DNA of 56,561 nucleotides, taken from positions 1-56,561 of the IMG/VR virus record IMGVR_UViG_3300031539_000035; one strand, given 5' to 3'. Positions 12,010 to 45,763 of this stretch are shown one piece after another. Source of the stretch: a virus (taxonomy: Duplodnaviria; Caudoviricetes). The translations under genes and the position numbers were made by a program. Under the pieces are notes generated by a model, which ran no database searches, had not been told where the DNA came from, and worked only from the letters and a program-made list of their open reading frames with translations. Each line of letters starts with the position of its first letter. Within the stretch, counting starts at the first letter, position 1.

Positions 12010-12133
12010 GTGGACGTAGCTCAACGGCAGAGTGCCTAAACGCCCTCGCCAAATCCTTACCCGATTACGGGTCGGCTGGATGAGGGTTACCACTTGAAAT
12101 GGGGTGATGCAGGTTCAACTCCTGCCGTCCACA
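12010..12133 (+). ncRNA. tRNA-like Y RNA (YrlA-like, in tRNA order)
   Basis: Acceptor GTGGACG/CGTCCAC, D arm GCTC-AACGGCA-GAGT, T arm GCAGG-TTCAACT-CCTGC; ~53 nt structured insert in the anticodon arm with CTTACCCG/CGGGTCG Y-stem-like helix; adjacent to Ro60. Confidence 0.7.
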
Positions 12134-12139
12134 ATGAGC

Positions 12140-12234
12140 GTCGGGGTCGATCTTATCCGATGCGTCGTGTGATAGTCGGGCCGGCTGACTACGGTTATCA
12201 GGATAAATACCCGTGGTCAATACATTTGCCCGAC
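12140..12234 (+). ncRNA. second Y RNA-like ncRNA
   Basis: Ends pair (GTCGGGGTCGA / TTTGCCCGAC) with a GGTCGA bulged-C motif; internal TTATCC/GGATAA and TAGTCGG/CTGACTA helices; followed by a T-tract. Confidence 0.6.
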
Positions 12235-12255
12235 TTTTTCTTTTGGGGAGGAACG

Positions 12256-13842
12256 ATGAACTACGGGCGACACTATTCGACGTTGGAGACGCCGCAGTCG
12301 GAGCCGCTGGCGGGCCAGGTCCAGAACTCGGCCGGGGGCCACGCCTATCCGGTGGACGATTGGGTGCGGCTGGACAGGTTCCTGATCCTCGGCTCGGAGG
12401 GAGGCTCGTACTATGCCACCGAGCACAAGTTGACTCGCGACAACGCCAAGGCGGTCGAGCGGTGTATTGCTGCGGATGCCGCTCGCGTCGTGCGGCGGGT
12501 GGTCGAGATCAGCGATTCCGGCAGGGCCGCGAAGAACGATCCGGCCCTGTTCGCCTTGGCGCTATGCACCACGTCTGCGGCCAAGGCGGACGCTTTCGCC
12601 GCGCTGCCCAAGGTGGCGCGCATTGGCACCCATCTCTACCATTTTGCTGAGTACGTCGAGGGCTTTCGCGGCTGGGGACGCGGCCTGCGCACGGCGGTTG
12701 CCAGGTGGTACGACGAGAAGTCGGTTGAGAATCTGTCCTACCAGGTGATCAAGTACCGTCAGCGGGACGGCTGGACGCACCGGGATATGCTGCGGCTGTC
12801 GCACCCGAAGAGCGCGCGCAATAACGCTGTCTACCACTGGATCACCAAGGGGGAGTCCGCCGGGTTACCGCTGATCGATGCGTACGTGAAGGCGGCGGCG
12901 GCGGAGACTGAGAAGGAAGTCGTCTCGCTTATCGAGGGGTACGGATTGCCCTGGGAGGCCATCGATACCAAGTGGTTGGGATCCGCCGCTGTCTGGGGTG
13001 CGCTCTTGCCACACCTTCCGGCGATGGCCATGGTTCGCAACCTGGGGCGGATGACGGCCAACGGCCTGTTGGGCCCCTTTGCCGACGCGAACAAGCGCGT
13101 TCTGTCCGTGCTGACCGGGGAACTACCGCGCGTGCACCCGTTCGCCGTTCTGTTGGCGCTGAAGACCTACGCGCAGGGGCATGGGATGAAGGGATCCCTC
13201 AACTGGCAGCCCGTTTCGGCCATTGTGGACGCTCTCGACGCGGCTTTCTATAATGCGTTTGGTAACGTGACGCCGACCAACAAGCGGATCGTGCTCGCCA
13301 TTGACGTGTCCGGATCGATGGATAGCCCGATGATGGGGTCTCCTCTGACGTGCCGGGAGACGGCGGCGGCGATGGCGCTCATCACGGCGCGGACCGAGCC
13401 GCAGCACGAGATCATGGCGTTCGCGGAACGGTTCGTGCGGCTGGAGATCTCACCGCGAGAGAGGCTGGACGACGTGGTGAACAAGACAGCCGCGTTGCGG
13501 ATGGGGGGCACCGACTGCGCTCTGCCGATGATGTGGGCGCTTGGATACGATGAGAAGATGGATAGTTACAGGGATAGCGGCTACGAGAAGAAGCGGCAGT
13601 CGATCTACAAGGCGGATGCGTTCGTGGTCTACACCGACTCTGAGACCTGGTGCGGGGCCATCCACCCGACGCAGGCGTTGGCAAAGTATCGCAAGGAATC
13701 GGGAATCAACGCCAAGTTGGCGGTTGTGGCCATCGTGCCCAACGAGTTCAGCATTGCGGATCCGAACGATGGTGGGATGATGGACGTGTGCGGTTTCGAC
13801 ACTGCGGCGCCCGGGATCATCGGCGACTTTGTGGGGAGTTGA
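12256..13842 (+). CDS. rsr: Ro60 / Rsr TROVE-vWA RNA-binding protein
   Basis: QVQNSAGG, RLDRFLILGSEGGSYYA, KYRQRDGWTHRDMLRLSHP, RNLGRMT, MIDAS DVSGSM, GGTDCALPM, YTDSETW, DVCGFD; GGAGG SD before ATG 12256. Confidence 0.96.
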   Translation: MNYGRHYSTLETPQSEPLAGQVQNSAGGHAYPVDDWVRLDRFLILGSEGGSYYATEHKLTRDNAKAVERCIAADAARVVRRVVEISDSGRAAKNDPALFALALCTTSAAKADAFAALPKVARIGTHLYHFAEYVEGFRGWGRGLRTAVARWYDEKSVENLSYQVIKYRQRDGWTHRDMLRLSHPKSARNNAVYHWITKGESAGLPLIDAYVKAAAAETEKEVVSLIEGYGLPWEAIDTKWLGSAAVWGALLPHLPAMAMVRNLGRMTANGLLGPFADANKRVLSVLTGELPRVHPFAVLLALKTYAQGHGMKGSLNWQPVSAIVDALDAAFYNAFGNVTPTNKRIVLAIDVSGSMDSPMMGSPLTCRETAAAMALITARTEPQHEIMAFAERFVRLEISPRERLDDVVNKTAALRMGGTDCALPMMWALGYDEKMDSYRDSGYEKKRQSIYKADAFVVYTDSETWCGAIHPTQALAKYRKESGINAKLAVVAIVPNEFSIADPNDGGMMDVCGFDTAAPGIIGDFVGS

Positions 13843-17444: not shown

Positions 17445-17740
17445 GTAGGCCAATGTAGATAGGGGCCTGCCGCACCGAAGTCGGTGGTTATGCCGCCGAT
17501 ACTGGTTACAGGTGTGCGCATCTGTACCCGTAGGTGCGGTGGGCCAGCGCGACGCCGTAAGATACCTGGTGACCCTAGTCCCGGTGACCGGGACCCAGCC
17601 GTCGCTGCAATGCGAGAGCGAGACAGAGTGAAATCGGGGCCCAGGTTGGCGTGCGTTGGTAAGTAGGAGGACGGCGTGCACGGGAGAGCCTACCGGCGGC
17701 ACACCGAGCGCGTAGTCAAGGCGAGAGCGTGCCGCCTATG
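17445..17740 (+). ncRNA. large structured non-coding region
   Basis: Nested helices (e.g. 17469-76/17533-40, 17544-56/17648-59, 17564-69/17641-46, 17578-84/17588-94, 17695-702/17729-36) and GNRA loops; no convincing ORF. Confidence 0.55.
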
Positions 17741-18371: not shown

Positions 18372-18553
18372 TGTAATTTTCCTTTTGCTCATCAGTAGGG
18401 GCCTTACTGGCAGAAGTTTCGGCACTGATTGGCTACCGGCGGGGTCTCTCGGGGCTGGTATACTGATCTATGGAGAATGGCTCTTGTTCTATAACTTTGG
18501 GCGCCGATGTGAAAAGATTGTGAACTCACAAACCGGGGGGCTTGGAGGCAGGT

Positions 18554-21226
18554 ATGGCGAGCATCGTCGAGCGGCTGGAGGGAGGCCTTTCGCGCGCAGC
18601 GGGCAGGCTGCTCCCCAGCGTGCGAGCGCAGGCCGCAGAGGCTCAGGCGTTCAGGGTGGCCTTCCGCGACAAACCGTGGGAGTTTGACGCCTACAACGGC
18701 CTCCTGAGCGAACTGGATGCCGAGACTCTGGCCTTCCTAGTGGACCAGCTCCAGTACGAGGAGGTTCTGCACCTAGGAGGCGCTGGCAAGCCGTCGTCAG
18801 AGTCCGACCGGATGCGCCAGGTGGAGCGTTCCCGCTGGCAATATCGGTGGGACCCGCTCACGCGCTGGGTGGTACGACTCTGGACGTATTTTGGCTACGG
18901 GCTGAACGTGGACATCGTGCCAGACGACGAAGCGGCGGTGCCGGTCTGGGAGGAATACTGGACGGCCAAACGAAACCGGCCAGTGTTCGGGCAGCGGCGG
19001 TTGCGTTACAACTCGGACGTCCTGCTGAGGGACGGCGAGTTGTTTTTCGTGAACTTTGTGTCCGAGGTAACCGGAGAGGTGACGACGCGGCGGTTGCTCA
19101 CGGACGAGGTGACCGAGATCGTGCGGCACCCGGACGACCGGGACACGGTGCTATTCTACAAGCGGGCGATCACCAATGGGCCCATGGCGGGCCAGGCGCT
19201 CTACTATCCCGACTGGACGGCTGAGCCTGACGAGCTGGACGCTTGGTGGGAGAAGGCTATCGGCACCGCGACCGGCGCTATTCGGATGGACGTCGCCATG
19301 CCGGAGACGGGCAGAGCCTACACGACCTGTAACGTGGTGGCCGTGCAGATCAACCTTGGCACCGAGGGGCGCGGCTGGCCGCAGATGACCAGCGGCCTGA
19401 CATGGAGCAGCGCCTACGGGAAGATCCTCCAGGACCGAGCGGCGGTGGTGCGCAAGCGCGCCATGTACGATAGTAAGGTGAAGGTGAAGGGGGGCCAGCG
19501 AGCCTTGGCCTACGTACAGGGGCGCGTGCAGTCGAGCAACGTCACCCAGGGCGGCATGGAGCGCAACCCACCAGCGTCCGCCGGTTCCGACTGGCTAGAG
19601 AACGAGGCGGTGGATAGGTCGCCGATCAACATGGGGAACTCTGGCGCGCAGGAGGCCGAGCTGGACAGCACGGCCATCTTCGGCATGGCCACACTGGCCG
19701 GCGGCCTGTTCCCTCACTACGCCGGCAAGGGCGAGGCGTTCCGGCTGGCAACTGCGTGCTACAGTGATGATACTGAGGTCCTGACCGAGAACGGATGGAA
19801 GCGCTATGAGGACTATCGGCCTGGAGAGCGGATAGCAGCTTATGACCATGAACATCGCCGTATCGTGTACACGGTTCCACGGGCCATGCACCTGTACGAG
19901 TACGAGGGACCGATGGTGCACCTACGAGGACGCACCGTGGATGCGCTGGTGACTCCCAATCACCGGATGCTTGTGCTGAACGAGAATAACGAGCCCCGCT
20001 GGGAAATCGTGGAGGCGGGCCAGTTGCCCAGCCGGTTTGCCTTGCCAAGCAAGGCTCTACTGGGCAATGCGGATGGGGTCTCGCATTTTCTGTTGCCTGC
20101 TGCGGGTTATAAGCCGGCACGATTCCTGCCAATGAATCGGTGGCTCCAGTTCCTTGGATGGTGGATTGCTGAGGGCTCAGCCTATGAGAGCAAGACGGGC
20201 ATAGTGCAGACATCTCTCGTGCAGATGGCGAGCAATGTGGATGAATGTCAGGAGATAGAGCGTGTTCTGGCCGACTTGCCATTTAACTTTTGCTGCGATG
20301 TGAATGCCCATGGTATGAAGCGTTGGCGCACCTCAGAGCGAGCACTCTTTGACTGGCTGGTACAATATTGCGGGCGACTCCAACCAGAACGCAGGATACC
20401 CGAGTTCGTGTTTGGCATGGATACTTGCCAGAGCAAACTATTGGTGGACGCTCTTTGGCAAGGAGACGGCTTCAGTGATGATCGGGAGCACTATCGGGGA
20501 GCACTGACCTCCACAAGCCTGGGGTTGCTAGATGATGTGCAGCGGCTTTTGATCCTATATGGTGAATGGGGGCAGATCACCGTACAGCGAGAGGCGGGAA
20601 CCCATCCCCAATGTCCGAACAGTCTTGCTTGTTATTATCTCTATCGAGCAGACAGAGATAAACTCTCTCTAGCACGCACGAAGAATGTGACGGAGGAGCA
20701 GTATAGCGGAATGGTCTGGTGCTTCGATGCCTCACCATACGGCATGTTCATAACGAGGCGAAATGGCTATCCACTTATCGCAGGCAACAGCGCAATGGAA
20801 ACGCCGATTCGGCGTGGCTTCTCCGACTACCAGTTGACGTGGGCTGACGTGTTCCGGGATGTCTGCCAGATCGTGCTAGAGGCGGCGCAGAAGTACGGCG
20901 GGGCGTCCTTTGAGACCATTGCTTGCGACGTGAACCAGGATGCTCTCGTGAACATGGACCCGCTGGCGGTGCAGCAGGCGGCCACGGCCATCGCGGCGAT
21001 TGCGACGACCGGGGCCGTGCCGATGGACGAAGTGGAGCGGGCCGGGAATCGCGTGCTGGTGCTGGCCTTGCAGAGCCTTGGCGTGGGGGACGCGGACGAT
21101 GTGGTGAACCCGCCTGAGGAAGAGGGCGAGGGGCTGCCGCCGGTGGTTGAGCGGAACCTGATTGGCGAGGCGGCGGACCGGATCATCGCTGGTTTGGAGT
21201 TGGAGGGCAACCATGCGGAAGCGTGA
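18554..21226 (+). CDS. portal protein with LAGLIDADG intein
   Basis: Position after TerL; LLRDGELFF, GRGWP, GEAFRLATA..AMETP portal-like motifs; about 550 aa after intein removal. Confidence 0.85.
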   Translation: MASIVERLEGGLSRAAGRLLPSVRAQAAEAQAFRVAFRDKPWEFDAYNGLLSELDAETLAFLVDQLQYEEVLHLGGAGKPSSESDRMRQVERSRWQYRWDPLTRWVVRLWTYFGYGLNVDIVPDDEAAVPVWEEYWTAKRNRPVFGQRRLRYNSDVLLRDGELFFVNFVSEVTGEVTTRRLLTDEVTEIVRHPDDRDTVLFYKRAITNGPMAGQALYYPDWTAEPDELDAWWEKAIGTATGAIRMDVAMPETGRAYTTCNVVAVQINLGTEGRGWPQMTSGLTWSSAYGKILQDRAAVVRKRAMYDSKVKVKGGQRALAYVQGRVQSSNVTQGGMERNPPASAGSDWLENEAVDRSPINMGNSGAQEAELDSTAIFGMATLAGGLFPHYAGKGEAFRLATACYSDDTEVLTENGWKRYEDYRPGERIAAYDHEHRRIVYTVPRAMHLYEYEGPMVHLRGRTVDALVTPNHRMLVLNENNEPRWEIVEAGQLPSRFALPSKALLGNADGVSHFLLPAAGYKPARFLPMNRWLQFLGWWIAEGSAYESKTGIVQTSLVQMASNVDECQEIERVLADLPFNFCCDVNAHGMKRWRTSERALFDWLVQYCGRLQPERRIPEFVFGMDTCQSKLLVDALWQGDGFSDDREHYRGALTSTSLGLLDDVQRLLILYGEWGQITVQREAGTHPQCPNSLACYYLYRADRDKLSLARTKNVTEEQYSGMVWCFDASPYGMFITRRNGYPLIAGNSAMETPIRRGFSDYQLTWADVFRDVCQIVLEAAQKYGGASFETIACDVNQDALVNMDPLAVQQAATAIAAIATTGAVPMDEVERAGNRVLVLALQSLGVGDADDVVNPPEEEGEGLPPVVERNLIGEAADRIIAGLELEGNHAEA
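19757..20788 (+). mobile_element. intein (344 aa) with LAGLIDADG homing endonuclease
   Basis: Starts CYSDDTEVLTENGW; block B VTPNHRM; LAGLIDADG-like FLGWWIAEGS and LVDALWQGDG; ends VWC..RRNG..AGN followed by Ser. Confidence 0.93.
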
Positions 21227-28943: not shown

Positions 28944-29927
28944 ATGTACGGAATCGGACTTCCGCTCTTGAGGGCGGCGCCCTGGTTTCCTGGACAGATG
29001 GGCGTGCCCGGCTCGGACGTGCCGCGCGGTCTGCGCACGGCCCCCACGGGCATCGTGCTATACGTGGACGATGAGCACCCGAACGCCACGGCAACGGCAG
29101 ACGGCACGGACCCCGAGAACCCACTGAGCACGATAGCGGCCGCGGTGGCCAGCCCGTTTCTGACCGAGGGCAGCGTGATCGTGGTGGCTAATCAGGCGAC
29201 GATCGCCGAGAGCGTGCTGGTGCCTATCACCGCTCCGGCGCACGTAGCCATTGTGGGCGCTGGGGATACGCGGCATCAGCCGACCTGGACGAGCGCGCTG
29301 GCGACGACCCCGTGCTTGACTATCCGACAGATCGGCTGGACGGTGAGCGGATTTACGTTCACCGTGCCGGCGAGTTCTGCGGCAATCCTTCTGCAGGACA
29401 CCGTACTGGGCGGCCTGGCCTACAAGAACGTGATCGAGGACTGCATCTTCGACGGGTTCTGGTCTGGTAAATACGGTATCGAGTTGCAGGGGGCGCCGCA
29501 TCGCTTGACGGTCCGGAACTGCCAGTTCCTTGAGCTGCATCAGGCCGGGAACGATGCTTTCGCCATTATCGTGACGAGTACGCCGAACGCCAGCCCGTAC
29601 GAGTGTGAGATCCTGAACAACCTGTTCTGGGAGAACGACAATCACATCGGCGGCCTAGGCGCGGTGCGCGGGTTCAATGTGAGCGTGTTCGCTGGGAATG
29701 TTTTCGCCGTCGCGGGGCTGATTGCGGCGGCGCTCAAGTTGGACTTGCGTGGCGGCACCCTCGGGCGCAATATCGTCTACGGGAACGTGTTCCCTGGCGA
29801 CTACTCCAATATCGGTGGGTACTGGGACGGGGCAGCCGGGGCTGGCACGTGGATCGGCAACTTGGCTGAGGACACCGCCGAAGCGGAAGTTGGCGATAAC
29901 GGGTTCACCATTCTGCCACCGGCATAG
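28944..29927 (+). CDS. right-handed beta-helix (pectin lyase-like) virion protein, paralog 1
   Basis: YVD..DGTDPENPLSTIAAA and repeated N/C-F beta-helix rungs. Confidence 0.7.
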   Translation: MYGIGLPLLRAAPWFPGQMGVPGSDVPRGLRTAPTGIVLYVDDEHPNATATADGTDPENPLSTIAAAVASPFLTEGSVIVVANQATIAESVLVPITAPAHVAIVGAGDTRHQPTWTSALATTPCLTIRQIGWTVSGFTFTVPASSAAILLQDTVLGGLAYKNVIEDCIFDGFWSGKYGIELQGAPHRLTVRNCQFLELHQAGNDAFAIIVTSTPNASPYECEILNNLFWENDNHIGGLGAVRGFNVSVFAGNVFAVAGLIAAALKLDLRGGTLGRNIVYGNVFPGDYSNIGGYWDGAAGAGTWIGNLAEDTAEAEVGDNGFTILPPA

Positions 29928-29939
29928 AGGAGGTGATCT

Positions 29940-30920
29940 GTGAACATAGGATTGCCTCTTACGAGGGCAAAGCCCTGGTACCCCGGACAGATGGGGGTGC
30001 CAGGGACCGATACCGAACGTGGGCTCCGCACGCATACTACGGGAACCGTGTTCTATGTGGACCCCAACTATCCTGGTGTTAGCGACTTGCGGGATGGTAC
30101 CGATCCGGAGGATCCGCTGACGACGGTGGCGGCGGCGCTGACCAAGTGCCAGGCATACCGGGGTGACGTGATCCTGGTGATGGCTAACGGAAGTTGGCAG
30201 TATGCTGGCCCGAATGATTACGCTACGGTGATCGCCGAGAGCGTGATCGTGACGGTGCCCGGCGTGAGCATCATCGGCGTGTGCCCCTCCAGTCCGGTGG
30301 GCGTCTTGTGGACGCCGGCTGCGGACTTGGGTTGGTGCATCGAAATCCGGGCTTGCGACGTGACGGTGGATGGGTTCGCGTTCGTTGGCGAGCCACAGGA
30401 CACTGGCGCGAATGGCATTTTGGCGGAGTATAGCGCAGGACGGTATGGCGATAATGCTGTGATCCGCAACTGTTACTTTGACAGTGCCATAGTGACCGGC
30501 GTGCAGCTGGAGTTCAGTTGGCAGACCATAATCGAGGGCTGCAAGTTCGATGGTTGCGGCTATGGGGTGTACGTGGACCCCGAGGGTCTAGGGGCGGCCT
30601 ACTGCGACATCTACAACAACGAGTTTCGCAATTGTACGGTAGGGGCCATCTACGCGGCTGGAATCGATGATAGTCGAATCCATCATAACAGCGTGTACAA
30701 CTCTGCTGCACAGGCTGGGGCAGCGGCTACCGACGAGGGGATCATCACGACTGACGGCGTGGAGCCAGACGGTGTACGGAATATCGTCTACGAGAACTGG
30801 CTCAGTTGCGCCCTGCCCGTCGGAGTCGGGGACTATAACGATCTCTGCTCTGGTAGCCCGACGGACGCTTGGGTACAGAACTTTTGTATGAATGGCCCAA
30901 CGACCACTAACCCGACCTAG
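29940..30920 (+). CDS. right-handed beta-helix virion protein, paralog 2
   Basis: Same N-terminus GLPL.RA.PW.PGQMGVPG; DGTDPEDPLTTV; beta-helix rungs. Confidence 0.7.
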   Translation: MNIGLPLTRAKPWYPGQMGVPGTDTERGLRTHTTGTVFYVDPNYPGVSDLRDGTDPEDPLTTVAAALTKCQAYRGDVILVMANGSWQYAGPNDYATVIAESVIVTVPGVSIIGVCPSSPVGVLWTPAADLGWCIEIRACDVTVDGFAFVGEPQDTGANGILAEYSAGRYGDNAVIRNCYFDSAIVTGVQLEFSWQTIIEGCKFDGCGYGVYVDPEGLGAAYCDIYNNEFRNCTVGAIYAAGIDDSRIHHNSVYNSAAQAGAAATDEGIITTDGVEPDGVRNIVYENWLSCALPVGVGDYNDLCSGSPTDAWVQNFCMNGPTTTNPT

Positions 30921-30929
30921 GAGGACTAG

Positions 30930-31124
30930 ATGCGTGATAGACTGACAGATCGATTCGTCGCGATGCTGGCGAACAAGTTGAGCTTGGCCGAGCCGCAGGC
31001 GCAGGCGTTGTATGAGGCCGGCTACGCGGATCCTCGTGACGTGCGGGCGCTCAAGGACGCCGAGTTGCTGGCGATACCGGGCATTGGGCAGGCGTCTGTG
31101 AACAAGATCCGGCGGAAGGCGTAA
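30930..31124 (+). CDS. HhH domain protein
   Basis: LYEAGY..ELLAIPGIGQASVNKIR. Confidence 0.75.
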   Translation: MRDRLTDRFVAMLANKLSLAEPQAQALYEAGYADPRDVRALKDAELLAIPGIGQASVNKIRRKA

Positions 31125-31126
31125 CG

Positions 31127-31783
31127 ATGGGTTTGAGCCAACTCGACGCGATCAGCCCCTTCGACTTTGTGGTCTACTGGGGCATCGACATGATCATCGC
31201 CGGCATCGACGATAGCGGCGGCGGTCCCAGTGTGTTCGTGACCGACGCGGATGGGTTGTTCGTGGAGCGGAACATTCTTCCCGGGGCGATAATCCGCAAC
31301 CTGACCACGGGCGTCGAAGGGCGCGTGACGACGGTCACCAGCCAGTCGGTCTTGCAGACTAGCACGGCCACCTGGACCACCGGCGACGAGTACAACCTTG
31401 CGCCGATGGATTGGGCCGAGTATCGGGTAGTCGAGCTGAGCCTGAAGAAAGCCATCGGCACGGTGGCCATGGCCTTGACCGCGGCAGGGGCAGGCAGTGA
31501 GACATACAGTTCCTACGGCTTGGACTACCTGAAGAACCTGGTGATGCTGATCGCGGTTGTGGTCCATAACGCGCCCTGCAAGGGCGCCCGATTGGACCCG
31601 GCGCAGCGCGAGAGCTACATGCAGTGGATTCAGACGGAGTTGAGCAACCTGCGGAGCGGCAAGACAGAAGTGGTGTCGGGATACACCGGGGCAGAGTTCC
31701 CGGCGATTGGATGGGCGGAGCAAGCGGTGACAGAGTGGGGCGCGGCGCAGATCGCCTTCAACCGGATTCGGAGGACACCCTAG
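31127..31783 (+). CDS. head-tail adaptor-like protein
   Basis: Position and size; C-terminal helical region with W..L.NLRSGK. Confidence 0.55.
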   Translation: MGLSQLDAISPFDFVVYWGIDMIIAGIDDSGGGPSVFVTDADGLFVERNILPGAIIRNLTTGVEGRVTTVTSQSVLQTSTATWTTGDEYNLAPMDWAEYRVVELSLKKAIGTVAMALTAAGAGSETYSSYGLDYLKNLVMLIAVVVHNAPCKGARLDPAQRESYMQWIQTELSNLRSGKTEVVSGYTGAEFPAIGWAEQAVTEWGAAQIAFNRIRRTP

Positions 31784-32020
31784 ATGGCTTGAGGCTGCTG
31801 GGTGCGGCGCGGGCGCGCCGCTCAGGAGGCTCCGGTGATTCGGTTGGGCGAAAAGGGCCTAGTCCTGCTCGAGTACGTGGGCGGCCTACGGAGCATCCGA
31901 GTGAGAGGGCCGGCGACCTGCCAACGGTATCTGTTTGGGGATGCGCGTCGGGTAGGGTACGTGGATGCGCGAGACGCGGGGCCGATAGTGCTGGGCGGTT
32001 ACTTTCGAAAGGCCGGGTAG
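31784..32020 (+). CDS. small protein, candidate selenoprotein (M-A-Sec-G-C...); alternative GTG start at 31802
   Basis: GGAGG-9nt-ATG GCT TGA GGC TGC, in frame with the 72-aa ORF; hairpin at 31798-31825. Confidence 0.55.
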
Positions 32021-32021
32021 C

Positions 32022-32549
32022 ATGGCGATCCTGTTCAAGGTCATCAAACCTAAGAGGCTGGACGACGCGGCCATGCGGAAGCAACTGCGCAACGGCCTGG
32101 AGCGCATGGGGCCGCGCCTCCTGAGAGACTTCCAGGCGACTACGGCGACGTGGGAGCACAAAGTAGTATTCGAGCGGCATACGCGGGTGCGGATGCGCGA
32201 GGACGCCGTATGGCTGGAGGTGACGACTCACGATCCTATCTACGGGTACGTGGACAGGGGCACCAAGCCGCACCTGATCTTCGCGGGCATCTATACCGGC
32301 AAGAGCAACAAGAGGGCGCTGGCATTCCATCCTGGTTCCAGTCCGAAGACGACGCCGAACGTCCTGAGCAGCGGGCCGGGGAGCGTGGGTGGGCCACTGA
32401 TTATGCGGCCTTACGTCCACCATCCGGGCACTAAGCCGCGCAATTTTACCAAGATGATCGAGACCAAGTGGCGGCCAAAGTTTTTGGCAGAGATGCACAA
32501 GAGCATGAAGGCGGCGGCCAAGGCCAGCGGGCATGGAGTAAGCCGATGA
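32022..32549 (+). CDS. neck/tail-completion protein (HK97 gp10-like)
   Basis: YGYVDRGTKPH..VHHPGTKPRNF motif. Confidence 0.7.
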   Translation: MAILFKVIKPKRLDDAAMRKQLRNGLERMGPRLLRDFQATTATWEHKVVFERHTRVRMREDAVWLEVTTHDPIYGYVDRGTKPHLIFAGIYTGKSNKRALAFHPGSSPKTTPNVLSSGPGSVGGPLIMRPYVHHPGTKPRNFTKMIETKWRPKFLAEMHKSMKAAAKASGHGVSR

Positions 32550-32881
32550 GGGTGACGATATTGGAGGACAGGGGCCCATCGCTCCTGGTGGAGTGGACGC
32601 AGGATGAGCGGATTCACCGGGCGATCCTGCCCAAGGACGTCGTCCAGGACGGCGAGATCGACGACGAAGAGGCCGCGAAGGGGATCGCCTACGGCCTGGA
32701 CTATGAGCGGCTGATCGCCATCACGGTGACGCCCGAGCAGATAGCGGCGGCATTGAGGGCACGAGGATACTGGACGGTAGAGGACTTGGAGCGGAACTGG
32801 GCGAAGGTGCAGAGGGTATTCGCACTGGCGGTATATCAGGACGCGGCGGCTATGCTGAGCGCGGCTAGGAGGTCTAGATGA
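32546..32881 (+). CDS. hypothetical tail-module protein
   Basis: ATGA-coupled ORF. Confidence 0.6.
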   Translation: MRVTILEDRGPSLLVEWTQDERIHRAILPKDVVQDGEIDDEEAAKGIAYGLDYERLIAITVTPEQIAAALRARGYWTVEDLERNWAKVQRVFALAVYQDAAAMLSAARRSR

Positions 32882-44081: not shown

Positions 44082-44495
44082 GTGCAACTGACCTACGCAG
44101 GCACGTACAAACTGGGCTTGCTAATGGACGAACTTCTTGCCGCCTATCCCGAGTGGCTGGTCGGGGATGCACCAACGCGCCATTGCCTATTGCGCCTAGA
44201 GGGCAACGAGCTCGGTGTCCGACTCTCCGTCCCAGACGATAGTGACGCCGGCGCGATTGCGGCGGTTGTGGCAGCACACGACCCGACTGTACTCACTGCT
44301 GGCGAGGTGCTTGACGCCGAGTCGGCCGACGCCAAGGCGCGCATCCTTGGAGCCATCGACGCGGCACTGACCGACTATGCGGCGGCACTGGAGCGATGGG
44401 ATGTGCTCACGGCGGTGCAGCAGAAGGCGGTACTGAGGCGGCTGGTAGAGACGCAGGCGCAACTCCTGCGCTATCACCGAAGGGAGTGGCTGTGA
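44082..44495 (+). CDS. hypothetical protein (fibre-associated)
   Basis: AGGAGG SD; VVAAHDP motif. Confidence 0.6.
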   Translation: MQLTYAGTYKLGLLMDELLAAYPEWLVGDAPTRHCLLRLEGNELGVRLSVPDDSDAGAIAAVVAAHDPTVLTAGEVLDAESADAKARILGAIDAALTDYAAALERWDVLTAVQQKAVLRRLVETQAQLLRYHRREWL

Positions 44496-45763
44496 CCGTT
44501 TCCGTTATCACGCCGACTCACAGGGGCATGCCCATCTTGCAGGATGCCTACGATAGTCTGCTGGCACAGACCTACGGCGAGTGGGAGTGGGTGCTGGCTC
44601 CCAACAATGGGGCGCAGATATCCGAGATGATCGCCAACGATCCTCGCGTGCGTCTCTACCCATACGAGAACCCGGCGGGCGAGTCGTTTTCGATTGGGGC
44701 GCTGAAGCACTTCTGCTGCGATCACGCGACTGGCGATGTCTACCTGGAGCTGGACGACGACGACGTTCTGGGTCCCGACTGTTTGCAAGAAGTGGCAGAT
44801 GCGTTCGCCGACCCCATGGTGCAGATGGCCTACGGCAACTGCTGCGAGTACAAGTGGCCGAGTCTAGAGCCGATTGTCTTTAGCCCGTACTGGGGCTGGC
44901 ACCATCGGGACTGCGTTTTTATGGGCCAGCCGATGAAAGAAGCACGGGCCTGGCCACCGGGGCCGTGGGGTCTGCGCCAGATCTGGTGGAGCCCAAATCA
45001 TCCTCGCGCCTGGCGGGCCACAGCCTACCATGCGATTGGTGGGCACGACAGGGTGCTGGCGCTGGTGGACGATCACGACCTGAACATCCGCATGTACCTG
45101 GCCTACGGGCAGCAGGGGATGCGGCACATGGACAAGCCGATCTACGGCTATCGCGTGCTGGCGGACTCTACCTGCAAGGAGTACAGCAAGCAGATTCAGG
45201 CGTCCAACCGCGAGTGCTATCACAAGTACGTGGAAAAGCTGTTCATGCGCTGGGCGCGGGATAATGGACTGCGGATGCTGAATCTCGGTGGGGCGCTTGG
45301 GCCGCGGAACGGGTACGAGACGGTGGACATCCGACCAGGCGCGAACGTCGTCTGCAACCTGGAACAGGACTGGCCGTTTGCGGACTCTTCCGTCGGCGTC
45401 GTCTACGCCTCACACGTGTTCGAGCACCTGCGCGATTCGATTCACACGATGAACGAGTTATTCCGCGTGCTGGCACCTGGAGGCATGGCGTTCATCGACG
45501 TGCCGAGTACCGACGGGCGAGGGGCCTTCCAGGACCCGACGCACGTGTCCTGGTGGAACCAGAATTCCTTCCTATACTACACGAGGACGGCCCAGGCGCG
45601 CTACATTCAGCCGCAGTTTCGAGGGCGCTTCCAGCAATCATACCTGCACACAGGCTTCCCCAACGAATGGCTCCGCACCAACGATATCCCTGTGGTGAAC
45701 GCGCATCTTATCGCGCTCAAGCCGGGTTACGAGGAATGGCGGGCCGGCGAGGCGTTGATCTAG
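44492..45763 (+). CDS. GT2 glycosyltransferase fused to a class I SAM methyltransferase
   Basis: VSVITPTH, SLLAQTY..WEWV, LELDDDD, DDHDL; then LNLGG, SHVFEHL, ELFRVLAPGG, QDPTH. Confidence 0.88.
   Translation: MTVSVITPTHRGMPILQDAYDSLLAQTYGEWEWVLAPNNGAQISEMIANDPRVRLYPYENPAGESFSIGALKHFCCDHATGDVYLELDDDDVLGPDCLQEVADAFADPMVQMAYGNCCEYKWPSLEPIVFSPYWGWHHRDCVFMGQPMKEARAWPPGPWGLRQIWWSPNHPRAWRATAYHAIGGHDRVLALVDDHDLNIRMYLAYGQQGMRHMDKPIYGYRVLADSTCKEYSKQIQASNRECYHKYVEKLFMRWARDNGLRMLNLGGALGPRNGYETVDIRPGANVVCNLEQDWPFADSSVGVVYASHVFEHLRDSIHTMNELFRVLAPGGMAFIDVPSTDGRGAFQDPTHVSWWNQNSFLYYTRTAQARYIQPQFRGRFQQSYLHTGFPNEWLRTNDIPVVNAHLIALKPGYEEWRAGEALI

Follow-up and report, generated by a model that had tools for sequence, protein, structure and literature searches.

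A putative selenoprotein gene with selenocysteine at codon 3 in the head-tail module of an uncultured tailed phage

Structure of the locus

The window analysed here is the whole stretch of 56,561 nucleotides of the virus record IMGVR_UViG_3300031539_000035 (Duplodnaviria; Caudoviricetes), in which a small gene at 31784..32020 (+; 78 codons plus TAG) probably encodes a 78-residue selenoprotein with selenocysteine (Sec, U) at codon 3. The upstream gene of 218 amino acids (aa) (31127..31783, +) ends with TAG at 31781-83. The proposed start ATG (31784..31786, +) abuts this stop, and a Shine-Dalgarno-like GGAGG (31770..31774, +) is located 9 nt ahead of it. The ATG is followed by GCT, by the in-frame TGA proposed as the Sec codon (31790..31792, +), and then by GGC, TGC (31796..31798, +), TGG and GTG at 31802. 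The frame from the ATG through the TGA is shared with a 72-codon open reading frame (ORF) at 31802-32020, terminating at TAG 32018-20. Readthrough of the TGA would result in 78 residues beginning M-A-U-G-C-W, with the core beta-domain starting from approximately residue 21. The TGA, present in six of the six members of the window clade, aligns with the first Cys of the N-terminal motif of the family, and the TGC encodes Cys5, the second position of the U-x-C or C-x-C motif (cf. MGCGCS, VACGCS, MACRCG, and MGCPCA). The downstream gene of 175 aa (32022..32549, +) contains an HPGTKPRNF motif. Both neighbours are kept in relatives as synteny partners. Neither Pfam nor PHROGs gave a match for the small ORF, the 218-aa gene, or the 175-aa gene.

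The initial annotation of this DNA had proposed a Sec protein of 78 aa, with a hairpin resembling a selenocysteine insertion sequence (SECIS) directly after the UGA. Each letter it described at the beginning of the gene, i.e. GGAGG, the ATG after TAG, GCT TGA GGC TGC, and the frame shared with the 72-codon ORF, was confirmed in the sequence, and folding reproduced all parts of the hairpin. The full predicted hairpin (31791..31832, +) consists of a lower stem CUGG/UCAG, a two-base bulge, a 7-bp upper stem, and a GGGC loop (31811-14); its lower stems take in part of the UGA and the AGGAGG described below. The upper stem-loop (31804..31821, +; -14.2 kcal/mol), the candidate SECIS core, begins 11 nt past the UGA, and its loop begins 18 nt past the A of the UGA. 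An assembly error at the TGA, which had also been considered, is excluded because five independent metagenome contigs (L004-L008) carry the 15-nt block ATG GCT TGA GGC TGC exactly as the window does.

Two further potential starts lie after the TGA. GTG 31802..31804 (+), with GAGG 7 nt upstream, is used by gene callers for the 72-aa form. AGGAGG at 31824-29 together with an in-frame GTG at 31835, 5 nt later (31824..31837, +), would give a 61-aa protein, and the equivalent start was called in the database proteins P0007 and P0008. In ten close metagenome proteins, gene callers placed the starts at the equivalents of GTG 31802 or GTG 31835. The caveat concerning GTG 31802 in the initial annotation is therefore real for the window clade and stronger than was stated, since the second site is also present. 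As the window's own copy has good alternative starts, its case leans partly on the family.

TGA and Cys forms among relatives

Related DNA was collected in four scans. The viral one matched 40 stretches (3 loci, of which one was spurious) and the metagenome one 216 (15 loci); a search for synteny with the downstream gene as anchor gave 19 loci, and a degenerate motif gave 11 stretches. A hidden Markov model (HMM) located the core in 4 of the 20 loci scanned by synteny, two of them new. N-termini were obtained by reading the core frame backwards in each locus. L003 and L018 were left out as doubtful matches, and L017 was a fused form without the Cys motif.

Twelve phage-type lineages with DNA were obtained. 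An in-frame stop occupied the Cys position in ten of them, and in 10/10 cases this stop was TGA; the remaining two carried Cys. The TGA lineages were the window clade (6 sequences), L012, L015, L021, L022, L023, the L043 group, L044, L048, and L049. The window and L004-L008 begin with ATG GCT TGA GGC TGC, while L015, L021, L022, and the L043 group share ATG GGN TGA GGN GGN. L049 has ATG GGC TGA GGG AAA, L044 has GTG TCT TGA GGC GGC, and L048 has GTG GCT TGA GGC GGA. L012 possesses a 17-codon leader followed by TGA and then N-G-G-G, and in L023 (ATG TGA GTG) the start is ambiguous. The Cys forms carry TGC at the same position: ATG GGC TGC GGC GGC in L016 and ATG GGC TGC ATG GGC in L042. No further in-frame stops between the start and the core were found in any of the 12 lineages. 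Distant homologs open with M-G-C-G-G, M-G-C-M-G, MGCGCS, VACGCS, MACRCG, or MGCCGG. The check suggested in the initial annotation, namely alignment of the TGA with Cys or a conserved TGA of homologs, thus gave a positive result, with nine further TGA lineages as well as Cys homologs. The homologs had M-x-C-type starts and did not begin at the GTG without such a motif upstream, an outcome for which the annotation had allowed.

The lengths of the Sec forms (78-119 aa) and the Cys forms (81-100 aa) were alike. Similarity downstream of U was clear and comprised G/C-G, a basic linker, PPPPWPGE, and the core. Because only 1-2 residues precede U, similarity "through" U is supported on that side by the start codon and by its being coupled with the stop before it. 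A Cys codon becomes a stop in one step via TGA alone, and for this reason the presence of TGA in all cases is weaker evidence than its constant position. The criteria for new selenoprotein families given in the available part of the preprint by Haft (10.1101/2022.07.06.499078) are at least ten candidates, 100% TGA, similarity through U, and similar lengths of Sec and Cys forms. Ten examples, TGA in all of them, comparable lengths, and downstream similarity were found here.

Mis-called starts also occurred outside the TGA forms. Database protein P0105, which corresponds to L042, was called from the second ATG (MGRQQN...), though the DNA reads ATG GGC TGC ATG..., so gene callers mis-start even Cys forms.

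Translation of the stretch following the TGA

An ordinary small gene starting from GTG 31835 or GTG 31802 could also account for the locus in the window. ATG-GCT-TGA would then be a two-codon mini-ORF or the relic of an N-terminus, and the hairpin would serve translational control, masking AGGAGG until ribosomes finishing the upstream gene open it. Both GTGs have Shine-Dalgarno-like sites and were chosen by gene callers in relatives, the AGGAGG is paired in the predicted lower stem, the linker substitutions of the window clade resemble those of non-coding DNA in being all non-synonymous, and a hairpin is also found in the Cys forms L016 and L042.

The other lineages, however, do not behave in this way. 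In L012, L015, L021, L043, and L048, there is no ATG, GTG, or TTG from the TGA to the invariant G-E-x-G...Y-x-G, which is nevertheless present in all five; L043 and L048 also lack CTG, ATT, ATC, and ATA in this stretch. In the Cys form L016 the upstream ATG is the sole start. The D/E-x-P-P-P-P-W-P-G-E segment after the TGA keeps its amino acids, while the third codon positions differ (L015, L044, L048), which indicates that this segment is translated. A start after the TGA leaves this protein-level conservation unexplained. It also does not explain why 10/10 stops fall exactly at the conserved Cys codon and nowhere else in the linker of approximately 20 codons, nor why ATG-x-TGA-G-C is invariant in the window clade. 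With these points taken together, we regard a start at either GTG, and the masking role of the hairpin that goes with it, as unlikely.

In TGA forms, as well as in the Cys form L042, the start codon touches or overlaps the stop of the preceding gene (TAATG, TAGTG, TAG ATG, or TAA ATG). An arrangement like that of the window was observed in L015, L043, L048, L049, and the Cys form L042. A fusion with the upstream gene is not conserved, as L008 carries an additional base between TAG and ATG. Judged from these comparisons, translation must start ahead of the TGA and pass through it, since later starts are absent in five lineages, PPPPWPGE is conserved, and the start is coupled to the upstream stop.

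Hairpin downstream of the TGA

The published model of bacterial SECIS elements (bSECIS), as given in the available text of PMC13188914, specifies an apical loop of 3-9 nt, an upper stem of 4-16 bp, G in the first two loop positions, a distance of 16-37 nt from the UGA, and a minimum free energy of -7.5 kcal/mol or lower. With 7 bp, GGGC, 18 nt, and -14.2 kcal/mol, the hairpin of the window agrees with this model in all four respects, and the resemblance to SECIS noted in the initial annotation was borne out. In a strict version of the test, in which the gapless upper stem alone must reach the energy limit, 6/10 TGA sites passed compared to 3-8% of background positions at the same loci (binomial 4e-6). 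The passing sites and their loops were the window (GGGC), L015 (GGC), L022 (GGC), L023 (AGUU), L044 (CGUG), and L048 (GGG). One of the six Cys sites passed (L016). L012 has a 7-bp stem and a GGU loop and passes at -13.1 kcal/mol once the lower stem is included. It resembles the SECIS elements described in the available part of 10.1101/2022.07.06.499078, which have a perfect stem of about 7 bp and a G-containing loop such as GGU.

The energy of the perfect stem-loop in the SECIS register was reached by 0.5% of 1174 background positions in the window, and approximately 1.9% of 2000 dinucleotide shuffles matched it (p = 0.019). When the register-specific hairpin was compared with dinucleotide shuffles of the local segments, p values of 0.0095-0.09 were obtained at 9/10 sites (Fisher p 1.8e-6). 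The fused forms L009, L011, and L050 had no hairpin in the SECIS register. A search of 31600-32100 against Rfam at a permissive threshold returned chance-level matches only. Covariation in the hairpin was judged by eye, and the MAFFT alignment was registered on a shared sequence string, not on the stems.

Within the 12 linker codons of the window clade (6 sequences), 5 sites were variable, none of them at codon position 3; the share of position 3 among variable sites was 19/21 in the upstream gene and 26/45 in the core. The changes within the upper hairpin were either in the loop or from a G-C to a G-U pair. The RNA of the linker itself is under selection in this clade, because position-3 variation is absent, hairpin changes are limited to the loop or to G-U pairs, and the block from ATG to TGC is invariant. 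This weighs against a hairpin that is purely a by-product of the linker codons.

Translation through the UGA could in principle occur without Sec, by near-cognate suppression with a Trp or Cys tRNA, so that a minor virion component would be made in small amounts. Among stop codons UGA is the most prone to readthrough, and phage Qbeta exploits this for its A1 protein; a minor neck or virion protein would likewise need few copies, and L043 and L021 have no canonical SECIS. However, the stop replaces a conserved Cys, the chemistry of which would be kept by Sec or by rare misreading as Cys but not by Trp, and SECIS-like hairpins are enriched in the right register. The comparison with A1 also fails at the short product. 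Termination at codon 3 gives a dipeptide only, so there are no two useful products as in Qbeta. Readthrough of this kind seems quite improbable to us.

Genetic code, tRNA genes, and possible hosts

TGA closes many long frames with high GC content at third codon positions in the window, so there is no genome-wide recoding of TGA, and it also closes frames in 7/9 other TGA lineages examined. ARAGORN detected no tRNA in the window, and 5 phage records likewise contained none above the cut-off. A host that reads TGA as sense (code 4 or 25) or an opal suppressor tRNA supplied by the phage is highly improbable and largely refuted already: code 25 would turn M-G-*-G-G into M-G-G-G-G and the window does contain a tRNA-like RNA, but TGA serves as a stop in the window and the lineages just mentioned, no conventional tRNA gene was detected, and the tRNA-like RNA lacks a UCA loop, has a 66-nt insert for its anticodon arm, and adjoins a Ro60 gene.

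This tRNA-like RNA (12010-12133, +) reaches the Rfam tRNA threshold with the filters of Rfam itself (44.6 bits) and was not called by ARAGORN. The acceptor, D, and T arms are kept, the insert replaces the anticodon arm, and the molecule folds well (-51.4 kcal/mol, z -3.63). Directly next to it, with the RNA upstream, lies an ortholog of Ro60 with TROVE and Ro60 vWA domains (12040-13842, +). The two look like a phage-borne Ro/Y-RNA-like pair rather than a decoding tRNA.

Neither tRNA-Sec nor the SelB wing domain was found in the window or in related phage records, three of which are complete genomes. A tblastn search of GenBank phages with the core gave no match. The downstream anchor gene had one distant archaeal match, L041, without the core. 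The closest cultured relatives of the terminase are Actinoplanes phage phiAsp2 and Streptomyces phage TurkishDelight (45% identity), and the major head protein had matches at 25% only, to viruses of Methanoculleus and Rhodobacter. We do not name a host from these proteins because the relatives are too distant.

Protein family and predicted structure

A profile of the full-length forms was searched against 1.84 billion representatives and yielded 683 proteins at E<=1e-3 and 141 at E<=1e-10. By a rough regular-expression tally of 149 newly listed hits, 60 had Cys in the first six residues (mostly MGCCGG...), in 51 the motif was internal (typically ...GERP-MGCCGG... behind a GT2 domain), and in 38 it was absent or truncated. 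Short phage-type members open with MGCGCS, VACGCS, MACRCG, MGCPCA, MCGCK, MACS, or MACN. The predicted N-terminus of the window protein, M-A-U-G-C-W, fits M-[GA]-C-x-C with U at the first Cys. The invariant positions are M1, C/U3, G22, G25, Y31, G33, G42, T45, Y49, F51, G52, and GYVDARD. The window protein contains the invariant core and, 16-27 residues ahead of it, the N-terminal Cys-type motif. The family is large and unnamed, and its hallmark is an N-terminal Cys motif (CC, CxC, or single C). Pfam has no model for the core, and family members match only GT2 and HHH_5, both in fused parts.

In the AlphaFold2 model, which is confident (mean pLDDT 92.1), five strands and one helix form a small domain, and the N-terminal arm is unstructured. 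A Foldseek search of the PDB with this model gave nothing significant (best E 0.14, small beta-domains of GINS subunits), and the fold search of BFVD gave nothing significant either (best E 0.026, uncharacterised phage proteins). In the ESM Atlas, the natural homolog P0044 had a top score of 0.85 to hypothetical proteins, which was uninformative. The product is most likely a small beta-domain with a flexible basic N-terminal arm carrying the U-x-C motif. As to its function, we go no further than a reactive N-terminal thiol or selenol on the small beta-domain, the partner of which may be a neighbouring subunit, a metal, or a sugar donor.

With an HMM of the 218-aa gene, homologs were located immediately before the small gene in 9 phage-type loci (L015, L021, L022, L023, L042, L043, L044, L048, and L049), and the order 218-aa gene, small gene, 175-aa gene is retained across all phage-type loci. 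GT2 domains precede the domain in longer relatives, and an HhH domain follows it. In the long glycosyltransferase fusions L009 (1397, +), L011 (1426, +), and L014 (856, +), a Shine-Dalgarno-like GGAG and an ATG or GTG are found right before x-C-C-G while the frame is open upstream; the small domain may also be made alone from this putative internal start. The window itself encodes a GT2 glycosyltransferase fused to a methyltransferase domain (44315-45763, +) and an HhH protein (30930-31124). They were considered as possible partners of the small protein because relatives fuse GT2, this domain, and HhH, but proved to be a weak lead without specific kinship to the fused parts: the similarity of the window GT2 to the family-fused GT2 was only generic (E 0.068), and the HhH parts gave no alignment.

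Genome context

On the + strand, the order of genes is terminase (15269-), portal (18524-), head protein (21911-), major head / protease-like protein (27364-), two beta-helix proteins (28944-30920), a 64-aa HhH protein, the 218-aa gene, the small ORF, the 175-aa gene, a 137-aa ORF, a BNR/sortilin-repeat protein, and the tape measure (35309-). The initial annotation had assigned the small gene to the head-tail module, and this order from terminase, portal, and head to tape measure shows that it was right.

Several features of this region deserve a record. The gap between terminase and portal contains a DUF3800-III RNA motif (17546-17657, +; 64 bits vs. the Rfam gathering threshold of 43.8). The portal frame (18524-21226, +; 900 aa) has weak matches to Hint_2, LAGLIDADG_3, and a PHROG "thymidylate synthase" stretch at residues ~407-694, which suggests a putative intein inside the portal gene. 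The tandem beta-helix (tailspike-like) genes (28944-29927 and 29940-30920, +) are very similar over about 45 N-terminal residues and then divergent, and in this respect they look like exchangeable receptor-binding cassettes. The 137-aa ORF as listed (32468-32881, +) shares 82 nt with the 175-aa gene (32022-32549); its likelier start is an internal ATG near 32546 (M-R-V-T-I-L-E...), with which the overlap would shrink to 4 nt (ATGA).

Discussion

In the mechanism we propose, ribosomes would initiate at ATG 31784 in a manner coupled to the upstream stop. The stem-loop 31804-31821 would recruit SelB and Sec-tRNA of the host, and these would read the UGA at codon 3 as selenocysteine. Sec would replace the first Cys in many tailed-phage members of the family. 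The thiol or selenol might act as a reactive nucleophile or as a metal or cross-link site on a virion or virion-modifying protein, though this role is guessed. Sec as the inserted residue, the competence of the host, and the role of the thiol or selenol are all points that we infer. The 78-aa Sec protein put forward in the initial annotation is, in our estimate, probably real, with the alignment of TGA with Cys and the agreement with the SECIS model on its side. That a widespread tailed-phage family uses the Sec machinery of its hosts with Sec at codon 3, and that the 10 TGA lineages among the 12 phage-type lineages seen are selenoproteins, we consider rather likely.

A number of observations weigh against this interpretation. 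The global fold of 31770-31850 is ordinary for a stretch with 75% GC (z -0.81; 41/200 shuffles equal), and the linker is rich in Arg, Gly, and Ala, whose GC-rich codons favour palindromes. The initial annotation had cautioned that GC-rich hairpins arise easily, and the comparison with chance gives a mixed result, the stem-loop in the SECIS register being unusual. Three lineages fail the bSECIS test: L021, whose loop contains no G, L043 (-0.9 kcal/mol), and L049 (-6.1 kcal/mol). The weakest hairpin is that of L043, a lineage without any alternative start. The Cys form L016 has a strong hairpin in the same register (p 0.0045) and L042 a weaker one (p 0.037), which means that TGA forms are not alone in having the hairpin. 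The linker changes in the window clade, being all non-synonymous, are what a non-coding leader would look like as well, and this clade offers the two good alternative starts, GTG 31802 and AGGAGG plus GTG 31835. Upstream of U, the similarity consists of M plus G/A only (17 residues in L012). The window is a virus record without a host genome (CheckV 66% complete), and 185,579 species genomes contained neither a prophage copy nor any homolog of the small protein. Finally, Sec at codon 3 has no precedent known to us.

The proposed gene shares several properties with bacterial genes that carry SECIS in the coding region, the model of which is the SelB-dependent fdhF of E. coli: an in-frame UGA where homologs have Cys, and, directly 3' of it, a stem-loop whose small apical loop starts with G. 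The fdhF loop, GGUC, is in the same register, and its minimal upper stem-loop begins 11 nt after the UGA, as in the window. Unlike genes of the fdhF type, the window gene is located in a phage genome in which no Sec machinery of its own was found, its Sec codon is the third, only 6 nt from the start codon, its loop is GGGC or GGC without U, and its protein is not a known oxidoreductase. Its spacing and energy fall inside the bSECIS limits in the available text of PMC13188914. Between phyla, the specificities of SelB and SECIS differ.

Homologs of glutathione peroxidase in poxviruses, which are captured host enzymes with a eukaryotic SECIS in the 3'-UTR or in the coding region, are similar in that a virus gene relies on the Sec machinery of the host. 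Unlike them, the case in the window is of bacterial type and has no cellular enzyme homolog. According to the available part of 10.1101/2022.07.06.499078, selenoprotein families such as HgcA with an N-terminal CU extension, SaoC, and others were found via N- or C-terminal truncation at a conserved Cys. The phage-type lineages share with these families a CC/CU-type motif and database proteins that are truncated or started late as callers stop at TGA. Those families are cellular and belong to metabolic operons of anaerobes, unlike the small phage beta-domain in a head-tail block with 1-2 residues before U.

Other members of the family with the MGCCGG motif, either free-standing or placed after GT2 and before HhH, have the core G-E-x-G, Y-x-G, G-x-x-T, Y-x-F-G, and G-Y-V-D-x-R-D as well as the position of the motif in common with the window protein. 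The window form differs from them in being short (78 aa), in standing unfused between two conserved genes of the structural module, and in having U for the first Cys.

Cells and a few eukaryotic viruses are well known to use selenocysteine insertion. For phages, no report of a selenoprotein was found in the literature searched, with paper supplements and the BSepDB website lying outside the search. The available portions of the 2026 review of prokaryotic selenoproteomes (PMC13188914) and of the BSepDB paper make no mention of phage, virus, or viral.

With 683 representatives, the domain family delineated by this analysis is large and uncharacterised, and its conserved N-terminal thiol or selenol needs to be explained biochemically. 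If the selenoprotein interpretation is true, the truncation of family members by gene callers would be explained. SelB and SECIS would be shown to act on a ribosome just past initiation, and Sec at codon 3 would represent an extreme test case. The production of a phage protein would be tied to the Sec competence of the host and to selenium; the further step made in the initial annotation, that virion assembly depends on selenium supply, is conjectural. Such phages could make this protein only in Sec-decoding hosts supplied with selenium, so that the TGA form of the gene would mark host range and could be used as a sequence marker for host prediction of uncultured phages.

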